A stretch of 64,000 bases of DNA, from assembly GCA_964016885.1 (NCBI GenBank), contig OZ024741.1, positions 43,648,001-43,712,000 on the forward strand, in the 5' to 3' direction. A model generated the notes under the pieces. It saw nothing but the letters and a program-made list of their open reading frames with translations, had not been told where the DNA came from and searched no databases. How positions within the stretch are numbered: position 1 is the stretch's first letter; the number at the start of each line of letters is the position of its first letter. The position numbers and the translations under genes are program-made. This DNA comes from Eledone cirrhosa. Its lineage: Eukaryota. Positions 2,494 to 60,435 of this stretch are shown here, one piece after another.

Positions 2494-5400
2494 TTGCTCG
2501 AAATGAATATTGATAATAAAAGCAATTCGACTTTATCAAGCAGTGAATTACAGCGGCGACGGCGTGCAGACACGAATGAAGAAAAACGGCCCGAACAGCG
2601 CCATCGGAACGCCGAACTTCAGAGGCGAAGAGGTGCCGCCATGAATGAAGAGGAGCTGGCTGAACAACGCCAACGAAACACTGGAGCCAAGCAGCGACGG
2701 CGTGCTGCGATGGTTGAAGACGAACTGGCTGAGCACATCAGCAGATGGCCGGAATTCAGCAGCAACGACGTGCTGAGATGGATGAAGAGGGGCTAGCTGA
2801 ACAGCGCCAGTGCAATACAGAAGTTCAGAGAATGTGTAGCCAAAGTGCTCCTCATTCCAGTAAAGAAGCTAGAAGGCGAACGGATGATATTAAAAATGGT
2901 TCATGGCAACCGTGTCATTTTCAGATTGTTGGACGAGCAGTGTCCACATTGTGGTGCATTGTTTTGGAGGCACGAAAAGACGTGGACCACAATGTGCTGT
3001 CATAAAGGAGCAGTTCAACTAGAACCCTTGCGAATGTCGGATGATGAGGAGTCAGTCACCGGAATTTAAAATACTAAGTATGTGGGGTGAGTCAAAGAGA
3101 CCGAGGTAGATTACTGCGCAAATATTCGGGGCAAATTAACAATTCATTAGCTTTAGCATCGCAGAGAGTTAGTGAGATGTTTGAGGGTGGAGCATGGCAA
3201 CGAATGTAGTCATTCAAGGCCGTTTGTATCATTGTATCGGTCATTTAGAAGTTATCCCAGGAGAGAGGCCTCGATTCGCTCAAATTTACGTTAACGATCC
3301 AGATTATAGTGAATCGGGGGAGGATATCAGGATCGGTTGGATGAATTGCCGGGAAATATAACTGAACTTGAACGGCAAAGGTTAATTGATTTTATCCGAG
3401 ATTTGCAATCATGGATTAGACAGTGTAATCCTTATGTTATGGATTTCATGTTGGTGGCTGAACTTCAAAATGTTCAGCAGCAAAAATTGGTGATTAAGGC
3501 TGACGCAGTGCCAAGGAATCAACATGAACGGCGATATAATGCCCCTGAAGGATTTCGTGAAGTTACTGTGTCGATGGACGATAAGCCTGGATCGAGAGAT
3601 ATCGTCCTCAATCGCAGAGATGGTGGTCTCAAGACTATCAATGAGTCAAATAGGGCATACGATCCATTGCATTATGTTCTTGGATGAAAATGGATGGAAC
3701 ATGTCTGTTCATTTAGATGATCATGAGAATCAGCATCAACAGGGAGGCGGGAATAGACACAATAATTCGATTCGCAACTTTTACGCGTTCCATTTGAACG
3801 AGAGGAATCAACAGAGAAATGCGCCATTTCAAGCCAGCAGATTGTTCCAGGAATACTGTTGTATGGCATTCGCAATGATAGAAAATCAAAGGCTAAATTA
3901 TATAGCTACACATCAGCAACATATCAGAGCTCAATTGTATAATAATATACAGGATGCGATAACAGCCGATGATGCCAATTACAAGCAAATTGGTCGACGC
4001 ATCATCGTTCATCGGCGGCCCGAGATATATGAACATTCGCTATCAGGATGCAATGGTTATTGTCAGAAAGTTTGGAAAGCCAGATTTGTTTATAACGGTT
4101 ATATGCAATCCTGAATGGACTGATATTAAGGATGCACTTTTGCCAGGATAACAGCCAAAGGACCGTCCTGATATTATGGCAAGTGTATTCAAAGGATATC
4201 TGAAAAAGATAATGGATGATGTGGAAAAAGAGCGAATCTTTGGAGGTATAGTTGCTTTTACATACGTAATTGAATTCCAAAAAAGAGGATTGCCACATGC
4301 ACATTTGCTGATCATTTTACATAGAGATTGCAAATTGAGATGTGCTGAGGATGTTGAGAGCGATGTGTGTGCTGAACTGCCGGAGAATCAGGCACTACGC
4401 AACTTGGTGGAAAAGTCAATCGTGCACAACCAATGCGGAGTGGCAAATCGGAAAGCGCCTTGCATGAAAAATGGCCAATGCAGTAAGCGCTTTCCGAAAT
4501 CTTTTGTCACGAACACTTCCTGGAACGACGGGGATGCTCATCCCTCATACAGATGGCGGTTTGGTCGAAAATGTAAACGGTCGACAGGTTACAAATCAAT
4601 GGGTTGTGCCACACAATACATATTTGATTATGAAATATTGTTGTCATATTAATGTGGAAATTTGTAGCTCAGTGAAAGCTTGCAAATATCTATTCCAATA
4701 TGCTTACAAAGGTCATGATCGGGCAATGATTAATGTCAGGAATGAGGAAGCGAACCAAGGAGATGCAGTTGGCAGGTTCCAGGATGTTCGTTCGATTGTA
4801 TCTAGCGAAGCTTGCTGGAGATTGCTTGATTTTGATCTCAATGAACGCAAACCCAGCGTCCAGAAACTGACGGTTCACTTAAAGAATAGACAAATGGTCT
4901 GTTTTCAGGACACTAGAAGAGGTGTCGAAAGAATTGCTAACGCACCACCTCCTAAGACCGAATTGACTGAGTGGTTCAAGCATAATAGGGAACATGCTTT
5001 GAACCCGGATCAAAGGCAACTCTACTGCCATTTCCCTTCGCACTATACGTGGGATAAGAAGGGAAAGAAATGGAATGATAGAAAGTAAAAGTTAGATTCA
5101 TGACTAGTGGACGGGTTTGTAATGTCCATCCAACATCTGGTGATGTGTTTTATCTCCGAATTCTGTTGCATAATGATTTTTCGTGAGGTAAACAGAGCTT
5201 CGCTGATTTGAAAACTATCAATGGCGTGGAATATGAAACATACCAGTCTGTGTGTCAACATCTGGGACTCCTTCAGGATGACGCTGAATGGAATAACGCC
5301 ATGGAAGCTGCAGGAACAACACAGATGCCAGCTCAAATAAGGCAGTTGTTTGTCACGATTCTAGGATTCTGCAATCCTGCCGATCCAAGAGAGTTATTTG

Positions 5401-7059
5401 AACGCCATTGGGGAATTATGGCTGATGATTTTAGGCATCATCTTCAGGTCGATAATGAAAATTTGATGAAAGCTATTGTTTTGCTCAATATTGAGCAACT
5501 GCTTGAAGTTCATTTAAAATGTTTAACAGATTTCAATTTGCCAATTCCTGATGAAGAAATGCAGCAACGTGTCTTAGCATTGAACATGACATTGCAGCTT
5601 AGACGGTTGCCACTCGATCAGATGGACCTATTCCAGTTTGATCCACTGGAACAGCAACGTATTGTGGATGAACGTATGCCAATGTTGACCCAATCTCAGA
5701 GAGAATTGGTCGATGGCGTTCTCCATTCGATTTCCACTGATGAGCAGCTTTGTGCTTTCATAAATGCTCCAGGAGGCACCGGAAAGACATTCTGTTTCAA
5801 CACTATGTTATCGGCAGTCAGAGCTCAGAGGAAGATTGCTCTCCCCGTGACCACCAGTGAGTTCTCTGCCACTTTGCTGACTGGTAGAAGGACCTTCCAC
5901 TCATGATTCAAGGCTCCATTGGTCCGGATGAGTTGAGTGTCTGTAACATTACAGGACAAAGTGAATTCGCGAGCCTTATACGCAATACGTCTCTGATTAT
6001 TTGGGACGAGGCTCCAATGTCACACAGATCTTTGTTGGAGGCATTGGACAGAACTTAGAGATATTTGCTGTAGTGACCTGCCATTCGGTGGTAAGATTAT
6101 CGTTCTTGGTGGAAATTTCAGACAGGTGCTACCAATTGTTAGGAATGCTGAAAGAGCGCAAATTGTCGATGCATCTCTGAAAAAGACCCCGTTGTGGCGC
6201 CATTTCAGAGTTTTGCGATTACACGATAATATGTGACTTAGTATGTTTGGGCAAAACGAAGAGGCTGAGACATACGGCCGATGGTTGATGCAGTTGGGAA
6301 ACGATGACTTTCCACACGTTGGTGATAATCAGACTGTAAGAATCCCAGACCATTTTGTCATGCCACTGGAGCGCCAAGCATTGATTGACTGGGTGTTCCC
6401 TAATTATGAATGCTTTCTGGCAGAATATCTCCTGGATATCGGAACGCGTTATTCTAACTCATACGAATGCAACGGTCGATGAAATAAATTCACAAGTAGC
6501 CGGAATGTTTCCCGGAGAGGAATGGTTTACCGTCAGTGCGGATGCAATGGAGCCTAATCAGCAGAACAATATGGATGTTCCGACTGAGTATCTGAATTCA
6601 CTTCAAATACCCGGATTTCCCCCACATATTCTGTGATTGAAAAAGGGTATGCCGATTATATTGGTTAGAAATATCAATCATAAAATGGGTCTTTGCAATG
6701 GTACCAGATTTATTGTTGAGAGATTGATTAACGGAAGAGTTTTAGAAGCTAAACTCCCAGGCAGAGAGGAATCGGTTCTCATTCCGAGGATCATGCTGAG
6801 ACCAAGTGAAGATCTGCTGCCATTCATTTGGCAAAGGAGACAGTTTCCCGTCAATTTGGCCTTCTCCATGACTGTCAACAAGGCACACGGACAGACGTTC
6901 AAGCGAGTCGGTGTCTACTTGAATGATCCAGCATTCAGCCATGGGCAAATGTATGTTGCTGCATCTCGAGTGTGCGATCCTGATGGTATAACATTTGCAA
7001 TTGATACCACTAACAGAGGAACAACCCTGAGTATTGTCTATAATGAAGCTTTGAGCTGA
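2494..7059 (+). pseudogene. Helitron Rep/PIF1-helicase (RepHel), broken by frameshifts and stops
   Basis: N-terminal EQRQRNAELQRRRR repeats and CPHCGALFW..CCHKG zinc motif. Rep motifs FGKPDLFITVICNPEW, VIEFQKRGLPHAHLL (HUH) and KYLFQYAYKG. Helicase motifs APGGTGKTF, IIWDEAPM, QFPVNLAFSMTVNKAHGQT and FSHGQMYVAASRV. Confidence 0.95.
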
Positions 7060-12184: not shown

Positions 12185-12986
12185 TAATATAAAACATGGG
12201 TAAATACTTAGAAAAACTCATCAAGAAAATCAAAAAAAAGGATATAGATAAATGAAATAGAAATTGAAATATATAAAAATCTATCAAGAAATATAGTTAG
12301 GTGTGTGTATATGTATGTATATACGCTCACAGATGTGCATATATGTATATGCACACATGTATACGTATAGTGAGAAAGTGTGCGTAATTCTAAAATTTAG
12401 GGCAAATGTATCTATATTTCTGTCTGTAATCTACAGACAGAAATAGTTACATCATAAATATATGAATATGAAGGCGCGCGCATAAAACGCCTGCACACTC
12501 GTACACTTAGATGCGGAAAGAAAGGAGGTAAGGGAGTGTAATAATTAAAAGAAAAGTATCAGTATCGATATATTTATAAAAATATAATAACGATAAATTC
12601 GAAATAAAAAATAAAAAATATATTTAGAAAGAAAAAATTAAAGAAAAGGAGACAAAAAAGGGGTACATACGTACACAGACACGCATGTCTCACAAAAGAA
12701 ATGTAAAAATATATATGCTTATATACACACGCGCACTTATTCGGGAAACCTCTGGTAATGAGGTAATTATATTGTATTGAATTTTATACATTAAATTTTG
12801 CTCTGATACTTACATAGAGCACTCTTCATTTCTATGACCTTTTCTGTTTCCAACGGAAATTTCAATACTTATAAAGCTCCCAAGGGAATGATCGCAGCAT
12901 ATTCTACATCGTTATGAGATTGGCACCTTCCAGCCCTTTTAAAGTCGAGCACTCTTCAGTCATAGGATTTTAAACCAATACCGAAC

Positions 12987-15125
12987 ATGGACAAATACCC
13001 TTTGGACTACTCTGTAAAGAATATCCCAACACCTTCTAACACTCTCTACACGAAAATACTGATAGACAAAGTAGAGAGGGTTGTTAAAAGAATGAGATGG
13101 AAAGCTTTGATTCTCGATGGACAATTTAACACGGATTCTACGGAATATTTTGACATCAAAACTCATAAATACCCGCAAAGAGTAAAAGATATGACCGCCT
13201 TTGAATTAGACCTAGTTTACCTAATCAACAACATCAATTTTCGTAAGTACTCTAACCCCTTTCAATCTAAATTATCTAATGATATTTCCACTTTCAAATC
13301 TTCTAATAAAAAGTTCATCTTCTCTGATAAAACTAAAAACCTATATGAAGTTAATAATAATTTACACGACCAACTATTAATAGATAATATCACCTCTAAA
13401 TACCAAATAGCTAATATAAATACGTACCATAATATAAATAAGGAAGCTAAAGAATTAGCTGTTTCTTTAAAAATAGATAATAGGACAGAAAAACTTGCTA
13501 AACGTTCTGCGTATATCACCCTTAAAGATCATAAACCCGACTTTATTAATCGTCCTAGTTGTAGATTAATCAACCCTGCTAAGACTGATATTGGTCTTGC
13601 CAGCAAAAAAATTTTAAATAAATTAAATACACACATTAGAAGTAAGTCTAAATTACTCCAATGGATAAATAGCTCTTCCGTAGTACATTGGTTTAATAAT
13701 ATTAAAAACAAAATCAGTTCTAGATTCACCCAATTTGACATTGTAGATTTCTACCCATTTATTACTCAGACCCTTTTAGTGAAAACTTTAAATTTCGCTA
13801 GAGGGTTCACTAATATCTCCGATATTGAAGAGAATGTCATCTTGCATGCTAGGAACACTCTACTTTTTAATGATAATGACACTTGGGTAAAAATATCTAA
13901 CCCTGAGAACCCATTCGATGTCTCAATGGGCTCTTATGACAGTGCCGAGGTTTGTGATCTGGTCGGCCTATTCCTCTTACATACACTTAAAGAAAAATTT
14001 CCTAACCATATTTTTGGGCTTTATCGCGACGATGGTCTAATACTTTCCCATACCACCATAGGCCATAACTTAGATAGATTAAGGAAAGACTTAATAAAAA
14101 CCTTCGCTAGTTTTAATCTTAAAATTACTATTGACACTAACCTTTCCAACGTAGATTTCCTAGATATAAACGTAGATTTGCCTACTGCTTCTTATAAACC
14201 ATACCATAAACCTAACGAAAACTTAAAATATATAAATAAAGGATCTTGCCATCCACCCATAGTTTTTAAAAACCTTATCCCTAATATTAGCCGTAGGATC
14301 TCCACCCTCTCTTCTTCAGAAGCTATTTTTAATAAGGCATCCACCTACTATAATAAAGCCCTCCAAAATAGCGGCTTTAGCGAACCGATTAAATACATAC
14401 CTAATTAAACTAACTCTATTAAAAATAAAAATAGGAAAAGAAAAATAATCTGGTTCACACCCCCCTACTCTCTAGCAGTTAAAACTAATGTAGGCAAAAA
14501 ATTCCTAGAACTCCTAGATAAACATTTCCCTAGAACACATAGATACTATAAGTTCTTTAACAGAAACTGTGTTAAAATTAGCTATTCCTGCGGTCCCCCT
14601 ATTAAGTCCTATATCCTCAACAAAATATCACCTAGAGAAAATCAAACTTGCTCCTGTAGAATCAAAAGTGAATGCCCATTACAAGGTAAATGCAACACCA
14701 AAGCCATTGTATATGCGGCTAAAGTGACAACCATCAGCAACAACCATCCAGCCACCAGTGAACGATATGTGGGTATGACGCAAGACAGATTCAAAACGCG
14801 TTATTACTCACATGTCGCATCCTTTCGACATCCAGAAAAAAGATTTACAACAGCTCTGGCTAGCAGAATTTGGGATTTGAAAGACCAAGGCATCAAATAT
14901 AAACTAGATTGGTCAATTTTGAACCAATCTAAAAAATATGCTAGTGGAACAAGAAAATGCACGCTCTGCATAAATGAAAAATTTTGGATATTGCAAAATC
15001 TAAAATCACCAAAGACCTGCCTGAACACAAAGACGGAAATTTTCACCAGTTGCCCACAAATGAAATCACACCTGCTTTCCAGCTCATATAAACTTAACAC
15101 ACTTTCAGATACTTATCCTCCATAA
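12987..15125 (+). pseudogene. PLE (Naiad-like) RT + GIY-YIG endonuclease, 712 codons with one in-frame TAA at 14406-14408
   Basis: YSVKNIPTPS..KRMRWKA N-terminus, RT motifs FDIVDFYP, SMGSYDSAE, GLYRDDGL and VDFLDI. The same frame continues after the TAA with RKRKIIWFTPPYS, CSCRIKSECPLQGKC, AIVYAAKV..RYVGMT, and joins the 14724 ORF in frame. Confidence 0.92.
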
Positions 15126-16364: not shown

Positions 16365-16434
16365 CCTCGTCTGACGATCGAATGAAGTCGTTTATTTCGT
16401 ATTCGCCTCATTCGGGAAACCTCTGGTAATGAGG
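16365..16434 (+). ncRNA. Type I hammerhead ribozyme in the Naiad 3' pLTR
   Basis: cctcgt-CTGACGA-tcgaatga...tcattcgg-GAAAC-ctctg-GTA-atgagg, with predicted cleavage after 16428. Confidence 0.88.
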
Positions 16435-18604: not shown

Positions 18605-18921
18605 TGGTTACACAACAGTTAGTTCACCATACCGAGAACAATTGTTTCACCTTTGCGGATCTTCAGCTCGGGATGTGTATAGCGGCTTCTCACAATCTAC
18701 CACCTACTCTCCAACTAGCAACAACACCATTAAGAAAAGTAAGCGCATCAATAGACAAACTATCTGAGAAAGATAACCATACACATCCCGAGCTGAAGAT
18801 CCGCGAAGGTGAAACAATTGTTCTCGGTATGGTGAACTAACTGTTGTGTAACCACTTCTACCTAACTCTTCCCTTGGACTGAGTGCTCTACCACTACGGA
18901 TATTACCTTCCAGTGTTTCAC

Positions 18922-20990: not shown

Positions 20991-21148
20991 ACGGTGGATT
21001 AGCAGTATCGGTAGACGATCGGATGCCATAATTTGCAGCATAGAGTTACGTCCCTTTACTGCCTGAGTTCAAATCCCACATACGTTAACTTTGCCTTTCA
21101 TCCTTACGGGGTCGATAAAATGAAGTACCAGTAACATACTGGGATAAT
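20991..21148 (+). mobile_element. tRNA-derived SINE, family 1
   Basis: Same head and central block as 908-1100. Confidence 0.8.
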
Positions 21149-35247: not shown

Positions 35248-35412
35248 TCTAGGGTTGGACGCCATGCTTTCCAGCATAGTTACGTCCCTTTACGATCTGA
35301 GTTCAAATCCCGCCTAGGTTGACTTTGCCTTTCATCCTTACGGGGTCGATAAAATAAAGTACCAGTAATACAATGGGTAATTGCTGGCCTCTGCCTAAAG
35401 TAGAGACAATTA
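35248..35412 (+). mobile_element. tRNA-derived SINE, family 1 (5'-truncated)
   Basis: B box gagttcaaatccc, central block and agtagagacaattat tail. Confidence 0.8.
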
Positions 35413-35466
35413 TGTTCTGCACCTAACGAAAATACGCCAGATTGAATGTGATGAATATATATATAT

Positions 35467-36043: not shown

Positions 36044-36049
<6 letters not shown>

Positions 36050-36622
36050 TTTCGTATCTCCAAAGAAATACGGTTTTAGAAAGCCGTAGCTATGCAAACA
36101 CCGGGGGGATAATACCCTCTGGTGATGTCCAGCAGAAGCAAGGAGGACAACCATCTATGTATTTCGGGCTTAACTGGCCATCGTCAGGAGGGTCCCTCCC
36201 ACCGCTTGCGACTGCTGGACTAGAAAACAGGCGAGAATATATAGTTTTCTCGTCTGTGTAATATTTATACATATTGTATGAAGCTATGCTTGCAGCGAAA
36301 TCCTATTTCTTTTCTATTATAAGTTGAGCCAACTTATGCAGCTTCATATGCAAATGAGATTAATCACCTCATTTAAACTGACGAGAAAACTATATATTCT
36401 CGCCTGTCTTCTAGTCCAGCAGTCGCAAGACCGTCCTGACGATAGCCAGTTAAGTATGAAATAAATAGATGGTTGTCCCCCTTGCTTCTGCTGGATATCA
36501 CCAGAGGGCGTTAGCCCCCCGGTGTTTGCATAGTTACGGCGTCCTAAAACCGTATTTCATTTGAGATACGAAATATTTATACATATTGTATAAAGCTATG
36601 CTTGAAGCGAAATCCTATTTCT
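36044..36622 (+). mobile_element. Asymmetric fold-back element, family D (HHRs at 36150-36193 minus and 36430-36473 plus)
   Basis: 36044-36260 is inverted relative to ~36375-36581. The tail occurs internally (36260-36311) and at the end. HHR accgtc-CTGACGA-...-GAAAT-aa-ATA-gatggt. Confidence 0.85.
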
Positions 36623-36662
36623 TATATATATATACACACACACACACACATATATATATACA

Positions 36663-40006: not shown

Positions 40007-40621
40007 ATAGAGAAATTTCGTATTTCTAAAGAAATACGGTTTTAGGAAGCTGTAGCTATGCAAACACCGTAGCTATGCAGAAGCAAGGGGCAACCGCCTA
40101 TGCATTTCAGGTTTGACTTACCTTCGTCAGGACACTCCCTCCCACCGCTTGTTACTGCTGGACTTGAAAACAGTCGAGAATATATAGTTTTCTCGTCTGC
40201 GTAAATGAGGTGATTAATCTCATTTGCATATGAAGTTGCATAATTTGACTCAAAGCTAAGCTTGAATCGAAATCTTATTTCGTTTCCTTTAAACGTTGAG
40301 CCAACTTATGCAGCTTCATTTGCAAATGAGATTAATCACCTCATTTACACAGACGAGAAAACTATATATTCTCGCCTGTTTTCAAGTCCAGCAGTAACAA
40401 GCGGTGGGAGGGACCGCTTTGACGAAGGCCAGTTAATCTTGAAATGCATAGACGGTTGTCCCCCACACTTCTGCTGGACACCACCAGAGGGCGTTAACCA
40501 CCCCACCCCCACCCCTAGGTGCTTTTAAAGAAATACGGCTTCCTAAAACCGCATTTCTTTAGAAATACGAAATGTCTATACATATAGTATAAAACTATGC
40601 TTGAAGCTAAATATTATTTCT
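40007..40621 (+). mobile_element. Asymmetric fold-back element, family D (second copy)
   Basis: 40007-~40255 is inverted relative to ~40295-40581, with a ~40-nt tail. Minus-arm HHR at 40093-40133: gtc-CTGACGA-aggt aagtcaa acct-GAAAT-gc-ATA-ggc (stem III ATGCAT). Confidence 0.85.
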
Positions 40622-41060
40622 GTTATAGATATATATCCAAAATAAAACATCCAGAGTATTCTCATTCTTATTGGAGGAACCCTTCCCTTCAATGATTCCT
40701 ATCATATGGCGCCAAGTTATGGGGCCAGATTGTCGCGCCATCTTGCTTCACCAACGTACAAACCCTGCGCTCTGTCAAATATCGTAACCTAGCATTTCGA
40801 GAAAGTGTGACCGGCAAAATAAGGACGACGGTGAAATAAGAAAAACCAGTTTAAAAAATGCATGAATACGAAAGACTAATTCACATCCCTGTCTTCTCTC
40901 AGTTGAAATATGTTCAATATTAAAAAGCTGTACTTTCTGTGGTTGACATTGTATATTGCTTTAGCATCCAGTATCACAACTAGATGTGAAGTAATACCTT
41001 GATGCGCATTTTTTGGATGACGCTGATCATAAGTTTAATGTCTACTGCAGATATATGAAA

Positions 41061-41248
41061 TAATTGTTTCTACTTTTGGCACAAGGCTAGCAATTAACCA
41101 GTGCATTACTGGTACTTTATTTTATCGACCCCGTAAGGATGAAAGGCAAAGTAAATCTCTGCTGGATTTGAACTCATAATGGCAAGGACCGTAACTCTAT
41201 GAATCAAAGCATGGCGTCCGACCCTCTACCGATACTGTCAATACACCA
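41061..41248 (-). mobile_element. tRNA-derived SINE, family 1
   Basis: Colinear with 908-1100. Confidence 0.8.
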
Positions 41249-50898: not shown

Positions 50899-51746
50899 AT
50901 GAACCCATAGGCTATTCCATTTCAGTCAACAACTTCCTAGCGAAACAGATCTCTTTGGATTTGTATGCGTGTGTTATATAGTTATAAAGTGCGTATATAT
51001 ATTTTAATTTATATGTTTAATTATTGTGTGTCTACTCTGCCTTCCACAGATTATAGATTCCATACACTGGTGGTTTTCCGTGTTTTATTGATGGCAGACT
51101 ATCTGTCTCTAGTGTGTTATCTTTTAAAGAGCTCACGATTCCTTTTCCTTTGAGCACATTATTGACAGGGAATAATAGAGTCTATGACTCCGTTAATTTA
51201 TCGTGATATTTCGCTCCTTATAACAGTCTTTCCTCTTTCTCTGTTTGGTTGAGCACTCTTCTTTGAGTGGTTTTTGGGCTGCCCTTTCTAGCAGCTCGTC
51301 CCTCAGATACCACTGGTTCACTACCCTAAACACGCTGTGACATCTCTCTCCCGCGTGTAGCTGGACGGTCGCTTTAGATTAACTTAGAGTTGTCTGGAAT
51401 ATATAGTTTTGCACGCGCTGATGACCCATAGGCTATTCCATTTCAGTCAACAACTTCCTGGCGAAACAGATCTCTTTGGATTTGTACGCGTGTATTACAT
51501 AATTATAGAGGTGCGTATATATATTTTAATTTATATTTTTAATTATTGTGTGTCAACTCTGCCTTCCATAGATTATACATTCCATACACTGGTGGTTTTC
51601 CGTGTTTTATTGATGGCACACTATCTCTCTTTAGTGTGTTATCTTTTCAACATATTGTATTTGAAAGAGCTCAGGATTCCTTTTCCTTTCAGCACATTAT
51701 TGACAGGGAATAACGAGAGTCTATGGCTCCGTTAATTTATCGTGAT
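50899..51746 (+). mobile_element. Partial tandem pLTR/retrozyme-like repeat (~520-bp period), family F
   Basis: acccataggctattccatttcag...ttaatttatcgtgatat occurs at 50903-51209 and 51424-51748. Confidence 0.85.
51410..51494 (+). ncRNA. Canonical type I hammerhead with full stem III
   Basis: tgcacgcg-CTGATGA-ccca...tggc-GAAACagatct cttt ggatttGTA-cgcgtgta, with predicted cleavage after 51486. Confidence 0.9.
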
Positions 51747-51883
51747 ATATATATATATATATATATATGTAGATCTGACTGATCAGCCAGTCTGCTAATA
51801 TGCTAATCAGGCCGATCAGTCACTGTATATTTTAGAAAATAGCATATATTTTCACTAGCTCTGACAGTTGGCAGGTGAACAGT

Positions 51884-51933: not shown

Positions 51934-52128
51934 TGTTTAGCTGCCAACACAGGAGCAAGAATGAAGGGTTCATTCTACTGACATGGCTATATCACTGAGG
52001 CTTGTTTTGCATAATTGCGAACGAATCGAAAAAAAAAAAATATATATAAGTATGTAAGTATGTACACGTACATACATATATGTATACATACGTACAGTAG
52101 TATGTATATATATATATATACATACATG

Positions 52129-52195
<67 letters not shown>

Positions 52196-52307
52196 GTATG
52201 GAGTCACCGAACATTTATTATAATGCTTGGTGTGTTTGTAAACACACATCCCGTATTAAGCCGTAGTGTCTAGCAACCATCGTTGCTCGTTTGTTCACCA
52301 CTGACAA

Positions 52308-52364
52308 AGGAACGCTGTACTAGTTTCAAGCTTATTAGCTATCGTCAGCAACGTATACCTTCCT
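52308..52364 (-). ncRNA. Minimal type I hammerhead (array monomer), intact
   Basis: aggaa ggtata cgttg-CTGACGA-tagct aata agctt-GAAAC-ta-GTA-cagcg ttcct. Confidence 0.9.
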
Positions 52365-53089
52365 GCCAGATTGTTGAATGTATATACTAACCTTATGCAT
52401 ATTAACGGCTGAGTAGCCCAATTTGTATATCGAGTGGGTTAATCGGCCGGGTGCACCGAAAACGATAAAGGGAAAAAATGAAACGAAATTTCATTTCCCA
52501 CTCTTAGTACGGCTGTTACTTAAATATAAGTGTGTACACGTACATACATATATGTATACAGCCGTACAGTAGTATGTATATATATATATACATACATGCA
52601 CACATATATATATATATGTACGTATGGATTCACCGAACATTTATTATAATGCTCGGTGTGTTTGTAAACAAACATCCCGTATTGCTGACGATAGCTAATA
52701 AGCTTGAAACTAGTACAGCGTTCCTTTGTCAGTGTTGAACAAACGAGCAACGATGGTTGCTAGACACTACGGCTTAATACGGGATGTTTGTTTACAAACA
52801 CACCGAGCATTATAATAAGTGTTCGCTGAATCCATACGTACATATATATATGTGTGCATGTATGTATATATATATACATACTACTGTACGTCTGTATACA
52901 TATATGTATGTACGTGTACATACTTATATTTAAGTAACAGCCGTACTAAGAGTGGGAAATGCAATTTCGTTTTATTTTTTCCCTTTATCGTTTTCGGTGC
53001 ACCCGGCCGATTAACCCACGCGATATGCAAATTGGGCTATTCAGCCGTTAATATGCATAAGGTAAGTAAATTACGTTCAACAATCTGGC

Positions 53090-53146
53090 AGGAAGGTATA
53101 CCTTGCTGACGATAGCTAATGAGCTTGAAACTAGTACAGCGTTCCT
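53090..53146 (+). ncRNA. Minimal type I hammerhead (array monomer); further copies at 52682-52725 and 53509-53565
   Basis: Same motif as 52308-52364. GTA sites end at 52715, 53136 and 53555. Confidence 0.88.
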
Positions 53147-53847
53147 TTGTCAGTGTTGAACAAACGAGCAACGATGGTTGCTAGACATTACGGCTTAATA
53201 CGGGATGTTTGTTTACAAACACACCGAGCATGATAATAAATGTTCGGTGAATCCATACGTACACATATATGTGTGCATGTATGTAGGTATATATACATAC
53301 TACTGTACGCCTGTATACATATATGTATGTACGTGTACACACTTATATTTAAGTAACAGCCGTACTAAGAGTGGGAAATGCAATTTCGTTTCATTTTTTC
53401 CCTTTATCGTTTTCGGTGCACCCGGCCGATTAACCCACGCGATATGCAAATTGGGCTATTCAGCCGTTAATATGCATAAGGTAAGTAAATTACGTTCAAC
53501 AATCTGGCAGGAAGGTATACGTTGCTGACGATAGCTAATAAGCTTGAAATTAGTACAGCGTTCCTTTGTCAGTGTTGAACAAACGAGCAACGATGGTTGC
53601 TAGACACTACGGCTTAATACGGGATGTTTGTTTACAAACACACCGAGCATTTTAATAAATGTTCGGTGAATCCATACGTACATATATATATATATATATG
53701 TGTGCATGTATGTATATATATATACATACTACTGTACGTCTGCATACATATATGTATGTACGTGTACATACTTATATTTAAGTAACATCCGTACTAAGAG
53801 TGGGAAATGAAATTTCGTTTCATTTTTTCCGTTTATATATATACATA

Positions 53848-56559: not shown

Positions 56560-58680
56560 AAGCTTACATGTTCATTTTCTGCATACAGGTTTGTTTTCCT
56601 CACAGGCATGCTAGACTCCATTGTCTGCTATCCAAAACATTGCCAAATATTTCATTATCCATGTATGTGGGGCTATGTCAAAGGGTTCCTTAAATTCTAT
56701 CCAAGTCATACATAAATACTTTAGACATCTTTTTGTGTTATTCCTGATCGCCCTTTCAACAGCAAGTAGGTCTTTAGTTCCCTGGAAATTTTTCCCACAG
56801 ACCTTCTGCTCGATAGGTAACATTTGATTCTGAAGCAAGTGATCATACACTTTCGCACCAGAACGCTAGTCAACAGCTACCAAAGCAAATTCAAATAAAT
56901 AATCGGCCTGTAATTTCCAATAAATAGACCTTTCTTTTTATTCTTCATTATTAAAGTTGTCTTTAAGGTAAACTTTGCCATTCATGCTTACGGGTTCGAT
57001 AAAATAAAGTACCAGTAATGTACTGGTCCATTGCTGGCCTTGTGCCAAAAGTAGAAACAATTATTAAAGTTGTCTATATCAGTGATGAAATCAATAGGAA
57101 ATATTTTGCTTTCTTTCGCGATAGAATGAAGCTTTTAACTACTCGCATGTTTTTCAACGATTTTAACATGCCATGGTTTGTTCGTCCAAGATATTTAGCT
57201 AGTCCACTTATAGTGGTTTTGAAGGATATTTCAAACTGGGTCAAGCCTGTGCTCCCTTGATTTCTGGGAAGGTAAAAACGATGTACATCTGTCATTAGGT
57301 GTTGCACCTTATTACAGGTTAGCAACGTACGCTTTTTGTATCAATTCTATTTATTTCACTGATATTCTTGTTCAACACATTGGGAATGTTAAAGTATTTA
57401 GCTCAGATTTCAGAACTATTTTCCTATAACATTCCTTCTTTATCTTTTCTTTTATGATTGCATGCTGAATGCCGGAGCCTTTTTATGCCTAGGTATGCCT
57501 AGGTTTATTCCTGCTCAAATTCCCTTATAACTGTTTCAGCGTCCAGTTCGAATGAATTCGTGTTTATCACCTTACCTTCTTTGAAACTGGTTTTCGCACA
57601 CTTATGAAGTCCAAACTCCATCTTGATATCATCACTGAATCTCTTCTCATAACCTCAAAATCTTTCACGCTCATAATTGTCTTTGTCATATAGTCTTAGA
57701 TCAGCCAAATAAAATAGATGGCTTATTTTCCTGTTTTCAATTTCATATCCCTAATGTTGAGATCGATTCTGAGGGGTGTTAGAGCCATGGAAACTATTAG
57801 AGATATTGGGGAAAAGGCACCGTCGATGCTAATGTTTGAAAATTGGAATGATAAAATTGGAGATTCGTTTAACATTGGTATCTTCCACAATATTATATTT
57901 CAGAAGGTTTGAAATTACTGGGCGAATGTTGAATATGTGTAAAGATTTCAGAATCCAAGCCTTTTTGTAATTAATCCATGCTTTTTCTTGCAATTTTTTT
58001 GTAAGATATTACGTCTAATCCAATATATATTTTCATGTTATGTCTTCTTAATACTGATAATCCTTCTCAAACAATTTTCAATTTCTTCCATGGAAGTGGG
58101 TGCTCTTCAATGGTTATTTCCCCTTGTCTATTTCTCTGAAAACTGATTTGGTATTGGATATGAACAACTTATTTTGCTTGTAAAGTCTTCGTATTTTTTT
58201 AACTTTTACTTGGACGTTTTATTCACATTTTTCTCCAACCTTCTTCATTGTCTTGATATTACATTATTTCTCCTCTCCTTAATACAATCTCCTTTTCAAT
58301 TTTACTTCTCCATTTTAACTTTCTTTTTCTTTAGACTCACATCTTGCTTCAATTACTCTACCAGATGCGTAAATCATTTCATTTAACTCAATAAGATCAG
58401 GCTCTAATCTTTGTATGATTTCTTCTGTCGCATAGTAAGAGATTTTTCATGTTTTTATTTTCGTTTGTATTTGAGTGTTTTTTATGTGGTTCCCTATCGT
58501 TCATAATTATATGTCTATAGCACATGCTAAAGTTTCCTCTTCACTTCCATCATATACTCTTCAGCAAATATTCCATCTTAACATTTTGTTTCTATCCCAC
58601 TTTCCTTTTTATTTTCATCAAGTTCATTAGAATTTCTTAATTCTTCAATCTTTTGCCTGATTTGTTCAGATGACCGTATT
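56560..58680 (-). mobile_element. Heavily decayed R4/Dong-like LINE RT fragments, interrupted by a SINE piece at ~56968-57062
   Basis: TWIEFKEPFDIAPHTWI, AWINYKKA, LFYLADLRLY (YMDD-like) and DVHRFYLPRNQGSTGL. Confidence 0.7.
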
Positions 58681-60216: not shown

Positions 60217-60435
60217 TGGTAATTGGCAGTATCGGTAGAGGGTCGGACGTAATGCTTTGCAGCATAGAGTTACGGTCTTTTATGATCTGTGTTCAAATCC
60301 CGCCGAGGTTAACTTTGACTTTCATCCTTGCGGGGTGGATAAAATAACGTACCAGTCACGCACTGAGGTCGATCTAATCGACTCCCCCCCCCCCCAAAAA
60401 AAAAAATTACTGGCCTTGTGCCTATACTAGAAATC
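60217..60435 (+). mobile_element. tRNA-derived SINE, family 1
   Basis: Head ttggcagtatcggtagaggg, B box, central block and ggccttgtgcc tail. Confidence 0.8.

Follow-up and report, generated by a model that had tools for sequence, protein, structure and literature searches.

A decayed, non-coding 420-bp hammerhead repeat in Eledone cirrhosa with PLE-type insertions and a likely circular RNA template

Animal non-LTR retrozymes are small hammerhead repeats whose transcripts were found as circular RNA in coral, mussel, and axolotl (PMC7229834). A 2020 review stated that retrozyme repeats show no motif which would reveal their helper (PMC7761336). In vertebrates, mobilisation by PLEs was concluded from co-occurrence and from homology to a pseudo-LTR (pLTR) in Xenopus, and one of nine retrozyme dimers was cleaved in vitro (10.64898/2026.07.22.740005). 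Endonuclease-positive PLEs themselves insert with a tail and an inverted, truncated copy (10.1101/2021.04.23.441226), and two internal start sites of reverse transcription were measured in vitro (PMC11167929).

The element described here lies in a stretch of 64,000 nucleotides from Eledone cirrhosa (assembly GCA_964016885.1, contig OZ024741.1, positions 43,648,001 to 43,712,000), referred to below as the window. It is a further member of the known animal non-LTR retrozymes, as a first-pass annotation of the window had proposed, since its low-GC hammerhead units are tandem, non-coding, free of LTRs, dispersed, and high in copy number. Like the retrozymes of PMC7229834, it has one type I hammerhead per unit, thousands of copies, and a highly self-paired predicted monomer, and it coexists with PLEs. 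Its 420-bp unit stands at the upper end of their 150–450 bp range, and a U-U at the base of helix II is also present in HHR_Amex2 of axolotl (PMC7229834). As in newt satellite 2 (described in PMC7229834), helix III is minimal and palindromic, which suggests dimeric cleavage; unlike that satellite, the present element differs in sequence and size and is dominated by dispersed PLE-type insertions. Plant LTR retrozymes, in contrast, carry a type III hammerhead in their LTRs, whereas the topology here is type I and the units are tandem.

Several features set the element apart. Ends fixed at two sites and inverted arms are not described in the text of PMC7229834, where the word "inverted" does not occur and the main text does not mention cephalopods; conversely, circular RNA was shown for those retrozymes, whereas for the present element it is a prediction. 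The vertebrate retrozymes share with it the conclusion of PLE mobilisation, the occurrence as monomers, dimers, and multimers, and local DNA amplification (10.64898/2026.07.22.740005). The evidence differs, however: here it is insertion anatomy, with no homologous pLTR found, and the main text of the vertebrate study refers to no mollusc, tail, or inversion (10.64898/2026.07.22.740005). With endonuclease-positive PLEs such as Poseidon from Anolis, the element has in common two internal starts, a one-sided tail, an inverted 5′-truncated arm, AT-rich or microsatellite targets, and a hammerhead upstream of the start sites (PMC11167929; 10.1101/2021.04.23.441226). Unlike in these PLEs, the unit is self-closing, with neither an ORF nor an ORF relic at the start sites, and the tail measures ~56–60 nt as opposed to the 30–40 bp usually cited. 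No cephalopod retrozyme was found in the literature searched, although the supplements to PMC7229834 list more invertebrates and could include cephalopods; nor were PLE tails or inversions found described for retrozyme insertions in that search, which mostly covered papers outside subscription.

The locus, its ribozymes, and its family

In the window, a tandem array on the + strand (period 419, 2.7 copies, 94% matches) is joined to an inverted arm. Units are numbered 1–419, with position 1 at window position 53137. The features are as follows.

52040–52047, no strand: short (TA)n target remnant in the left flank, from sequence
52047–52054, no strand: 8-nt duplication of short-end sequence in the left flank, from end comparison
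52052–52683, – strand: inverted arm, ending at the short start site, with an expanded (TA)n at ~52101–52191
52312–52354, – strand: hammerhead, the sole intact type I at the locus, core 52348–52318
52682–52683, no strand: head-to-head arm junction, unit position 61 against position 386
52682–53836, + strand: direct arm of 2.7 units (386–419, two full units, 1–271), ending at the long start site
52685–52715, + strand: first hammerhead core, its helix I 5′ strand interrupted at the junction and activity in cis unlikely
52716–53136, + strand: 421-nt unit between predicted cleavage sites, second hammerhead at its end, core 53106–53136
53137–53555, + strand: 419-nt unit (reference numbering 1–419), third hammerhead at its end, core 53525–53555
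53781–53836, + strand: 56-nt tail, from the short to the long start site, at one end only
53837–53845, no strand: right (TA)n target remnant, from sequence
~1348–1693, – strand: older-subfamily solo copy, ~0.9 unit, with its long end at 1348

The hammerhead motif, CTGACGA-14 nt-GAAA-(C/T)TAGTA, was found at every unit boundary of the array, including all three GTA sites named in the first-pass annotation; predicted cleavage after 52715, 53136, and 53555 (+) gives spacings of 421 and 419 nt, as it had said. The units are indeed non-coding with one motif each, but "near-identical" was too strong, identity among them being 94–96% with ~3.6% difference between copies. Similarly, the inverted arm exists but holds ~1.4 units (positions 61–419, then 1–215) rather than ~1.5, with one ribozyme and predicted cleavage after 52318 (–). 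ORFs which overlap the element are short (at most 107 aa) and mostly translate microsatellites. The short end of the insertion is on the left, and the long end with its 56-nt tail is on the right; a hairpin lies within this tail, immediately before the long start. The diverged solo copy placed at 1351–1690 by the first reading was recovered with slightly wider limits. It has a 44-bp internal gap, a CTGATAA core (G8 changed), and a GTT triplet, with predicted cleavage after 1573 (–). The 10-kb stretches flanking the window contained no additional copy. Two side observations concern this region. Each unit has an AG-GTAAGT splice-donor-like site (~53059–53067 and 53478–53486), reminiscent of the PLE 5′ UTR intron, which may be due to chance. 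Beside the element, a ~320-bp direct repeat (50903–51209 and 51424–51748, hammerhead at 51418) represents the end of another PLE-type family.

The unit is predicted to bear a type I hammerhead ribozyme. In the intact copy of the inverted arm, helix I has 6 bp, helix II has 4 bp over a U-U base, and helix III is the palindrome ACUAGU. Rfam returned no hammerhead match at gathering score, nor up to E 5 (its microRNA matches were TA-repeat artefacts below gathering score), so that the ribozyme is predicted from its motif, its pairing, and covariation. Each of the six helix I pairs is preserved in 125–132 of 133 distinct locus-helix rows, and pair 3 covaries between subfamilies (T-G in 93, A-T in 25, and G-T in 8 rows). 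Moreover, the homologous families preserve the helices despite their different sequence. Isolated motifs fold no better than shuffles (z −0.2 to −1.6); the linear monomer reaches z −6.66 and the circular monomer −143.4 against −99.9 ± 5.3 for 25 shuffles, with a contribution from the TA-rich hairpin. By analogy to axolotl, the monomer is predicted to cleave weakly, given the U-U helix II base and the minimal helix III. A U-U at this place recurs in several hammerhead families. Hammerhead motifs of other families are present in the window at 16371, 18793, 34178, 47871, 51418, and 51892 (+) and at 18666 and 63616 (–), several of them at PLE ends.

All three + ribozymes of the locus are altered: at the inversion junction, most of the helix I 5′ strand is missing from the first; a C-C mismatch interrupts helix I of the second; and in the third C15.2 is changed to U, which breaks the helix III palindrome. 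Self-processed ~420-nt monomers, which the first-pass annotation had expected from this locus, are therefore doubtful, and the locus appears to be an aged, decayed product that is unlikely to serve as an RNA source. Its two full + units share 245C, 303G, 323T, and 352A, which the inverted arm lacks, and a 35-mer spanning two of these sites matches the genome twice, both times at this locus. Such private alleles indicate local conversion or duplication, or else a polishing artefact; a DNA-level duplication between the two units is likely.

Across the 3.0-Gb genome, a 36-nt ribozyme stretch has 5,150 exact matches as opposed to none for its reversed control, and thus the motif is not due to chance. 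The 25-nt core has 11,743 matches (control 0), and the copies are dispersed over many chromosomes. The fall from 11,743 to 5,331 matches upon upstream extension was traced to older subfamilies with a different helix I, and 35 further loci picked for a variant ribozyme context proved to be older-subfamily copies. The unit is self-closing in that, past the long end, the sequence enters the next ribozyme directly, for up to 16 units. Two more homologous families, a young one with a 467-nt unit and an older one, are likewise self-closing and non-coding. A first look gave 1,255 candidates for the young and 2,215 for the older sister family; sister-family places are L029 (1–1530) and L143–L162.

Other repeats were also noticed. 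A second, unrelated retrozyme-like family at 36045–36625 of the window has two arms, short and long ends, and a self-closing unit, with ribozymes at 36187 (–) and 36436 (+) and also at 40130 (–). A 310-nt tandem hammerhead family with the helix III palindrome ACGCGU accounts for 27 motifs in the examined loci (L033 7200–8800, L068 900–2900, and L031 6900). A dispersed repeat of 100–190 bp, 81–86% alike and SINE-like by size, occurs in the window at 908–1095, 20992–21148, 35251–35413, 41060–41247, 56968–57064, and 60222–60365. Finally, ORF fragments at 3494–5903 (+) presumably resemble a Helitron Rep-helicase.

Insertion anatomy

Insertion anatomy was examined in a pooled set of 129 stretches (L020–L100, L115–L130, L163–L197, and two window pieces), which omits five pieces of two very long arrays; microsatellite-only matches, matches below 74%, and clusters with fewer than 100 aligned bases were removed. 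Sampling was non-random: L020–L040 are the best matches to the window, and chromosome C1 pattern lists supplied most of the rest. Local counts are consequently biased, since most loci were chosen by ribozyme-core pattern on one chromosome.

In this set, 244 arms were found in 145 clusters. Fixed internal ends were present in 192 arms: 88 ended at the short site (~215) and 104 at the long site (~271), the two being ~56–60 nt apart, with the remaining 52 arms ending elsewhere. A TA run lies beyond the arm end in 169 of the 192 fixed-end arms. The 5′ ends, conversely, are variable and scattered over the entire unit. A pile of 5′ ends at 383–393 (13 of 147 arms) was considered as a transcription start or stall and was discarded, as the pooled 20-nt bin held only 14 of 244. 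The clusters comprise 70 simple head-to-head pairs, 58 single arms, and 17 complex cases. Among the 70 pairs, 49 join a long end with a short end, one is long-long, one is short-short, and 19 have a damaged end, so that 49 of the 51 two-arm insertions with both ends intact show long-short pairing. The fixed ends and this pairing bear out the PLE-type insertion with inversion that was first proposed from the window alone. The arms start at internal sites and not at the cleavage site.

Two fixed ends and inverted arms are what PLEs produce, and the element is therefore likely a PLE parasite. PLE mobilisation of this retrozyme is well supported by its insertion anatomy, and the element is very likely non-autonomous and moved by a PLE. 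Compared in search of the helper, the distance between start sites is 61 here, 60 in a resident PLE family that we take to be Neptune-like, and 69 and 48 in the homologous families.

Circular or linear template

The ribozyme site is read through in 317 of 322 examined copies, and one of the other five is a mutated read-through. Genome-wide, the 25 nt that follow the cleavage site have 8,498 exact copies, and 7,234 of these retain the 10 nt ahead of the site; among the first 100 copies, the 12 without these 10 nt were all mutated read-through copies. Arms which end at the cleavage site were sought as well, and four of 322 lie within ~8 nt after it (two of them within 3 nt), which is no excess over random truncation. 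From this read-through, it follows that a cleaved linear monomer is not the usual template, and that the template is either circular or uncleaved.

The second of these options, in which the same PLE machinery would copy an uncleaved multimer from a homogeneous master array with a slow or inactive ribozyme, accommodates the read-through equally well. In the in vitro PLE system, insertion did not require cleavage by the ribozyme, and the main substrate was unprocessed RNA (PMC11167929), which favours linear templates. The ribozyme is also predicted to be weak, and the long identical arrays L021 and L023 could be masters. At the window locus, 204C and 266C are common to the second copies of both arms and absent from one direct-arm copy, which is a hint of a mixed template.

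The distribution of alleles bears on this choice. Loci differ from each other by 0.207 at family-polymorphic sites, whereas the internal difference is no more than 0.03 for 29 of 65 clusters; copies within one insertion derive from one sequence. In nine clusters the internal difference exceeds 0.12, which speaks against the circle. In 42 loci, 238 rare alleles in overlapping copies comprise 226 singletons, seven shared by a subset, four present in all copies, and one order-specific; this count omits four long arrays, with which the respective numbers become 274, 103, 5, and 1. Order-specific sharing between arms, expected of mixed linear templates, is thus restricted to one of 238 alleles, which speaks against the uncleaved multimer. 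A rare allele common to all copies is found in just four of the 42 loci, which speaks against the circle. The most informative of the loci is L123, a young insertion at 50.60 Mb of chromosome C1 with arms of ~3.7 and 5 units that are almost without differences. Both 97G and 344T occur in every covering copy of both arms. The 344T pattern matches the genome 16 times, eight times in L123 and eight times in single units elsewhere; these eight carriers were fetched as possible sources and none has the L123 haplotype, nor does any other tandem array of the assembly. The private haplotype in both arms therefore indicates that one monomer sequence was multiplied in both. Rolling copying of one monomer fits L123 in one step, the alternatives being an unassembled source array or homogenisation by the assembly. 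Furthermore, compensatory change conserves the ribozyme helices in families which have no ORF, which argues against the uncleaved multimer. Taken with the points in its favour, the uncleaved multimer seems rather unlikely as the template.

The circle is probably the usual template, by an argument which is indirect and depends mainly on L123. Rolling copying of a circle by a PLE reverse transcriptase, which the first-pass annotation had read from the window itself, thus fits one insertion at the family level, but the window arms may reflect a mixed template. Tandem length alone is no evidence for it, because arrays also grow at the DNA level, as in L041, L042, L043–45, and L204. The alternating A-B arrays L041 and L042 had been considered as copies of dimer circles with one weakened ribozyme; in L041, a mosaic unit whose breakpoint falls between positions 38 and 204 revealed DNA duplication instead. 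L043–L045 (~50 units) and L204 (at least 12 units) are satellite-like, with alleles and deletions common to subsets of units.

Coding PLEs and the proposed route of insertion

A further explanation would be that the unit is the pLTR of an ordinary coding PLE and its copies are truncated tail ends. Its end anatomy is the same as that of the coding PLEs of this genome, PLE ORF fragments lie near many copies, and vertebrate retrozymes are homologous to PLE pLTRs (10.64898/2026.07.22.740005). However, in the ~130 stretches examined, a small part of a family of thousands, no copy was the terminal repeat of a coding PLE or continuous with an ORF; the check suggested in the first-pass annotation, for a PLE whose pLTR equals the unit, thus found none there. 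Nothing in common was found upstream among 42 single-orientation clusters (three of which match sister families), and at none of the 35 further loci does the unit form the terminal repeat of an ORF. At L171 (2385–3261), a single-arm copy first suspected to be a chimera with a PLE arm turned out to be an insertion, which interrupts the PLE ORF between 9-bp target duplications and later underwent a partial inverted duplication. Self-closure for up to 16 units is equally at odds with a truncated tail, and the ribozymes and ends of neighbouring PLEs are unrelated to those of the unit, with only the (TA)n target in common. With this evidence, a pLTR origin is very unlikely. Even less probable is spread at the DNA level, by unequal exchange and fold-back repair of a repeat with a relic ribozyme: duplication did occur in L041, L042, L043–45, and L204 and likely between the window's two full units, but unequal exchange does not make dispersed insertions whose 3′ ends are fixed at two sites, whose 5′ ends vary, and whose arms pair long with short, so that DNA-level expansion is largely excluded as the dispersal mode and stays as a secondary process.

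The search for a helper by terminal similarity gave no PLE terminal repeat in the examined loci which resembles the unit, and no ORF with both RT and GIY-YIG flanked by the repeat was found in them. Among the resident PLEs, whose clade names we assume from motifs and not from a tree, the Neptune-like family is both abundant and young; its open frames reach 1,261 aa, with weak Pfam support. Among named relatives of a resident PLE protein, the best comes from Octopus vulgaris (66%). In the window itself, nearly continuous PLE-like frames (480 and 238 aa) at 12966–15122 (+) are followed by a hammerhead at 16371; they had no Pfam match and are presumably Hydra-like.

Overall, it is considered likely that the element is a decayed, non-coding 420-bp hammerhead repeat which was mobilised in trans by a PLE, with circular monomer RNA as the likely template. 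In the proposed route, a young array would be transcribed and its ribozymes would cut out the monomer, probably as dimers that pair by the palindromic helix III, and a host ligase may close this monomer as in coral, mussel, and axolotl. Judging from the anatomy and from published biochemistry, a PLE protein would then nick (TA)n DNA on both strands, and cDNA synthesis would begin internally at two places, around positions 215 and 271 of the unit. The later steps can be seen in the DNA: arms run back from the fixed end through the ribozyme site, often repeatedly, and the point at which each one stops varies. The junction of the two arms is head to head, and only one end bears the tail. Decay follows insertion, together with DNA-level growth or homogenisation of some arrays. 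For the at least three homologous families together, the balance tips slightly towards a long-lived, ORF-free lineage of circular-RNA parasites, in which PLEs would make two concatemer arms by rolling-circle, target-primed copying from two internal sites on one RNA circle.

This kind of element was already known, and the window locus is an ordinary decayed copy. The two-start tail and inversion of PLEs in 49 of 51 intact two-arm insertions are, in turn, unusually direct genomic evidence for PLE mobilisation, and they bear on two questions about animal retrozymes, namely the enzyme that moves them and the use of the circle as template. With its start sites mapped, a 422-nt unit could go directly into the in vitro PLE assay already published. 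If the proposed route is true, this genome would hold a direct record of two things that were until now proposals for animal retrozymes, the class of the helper and the circular template.
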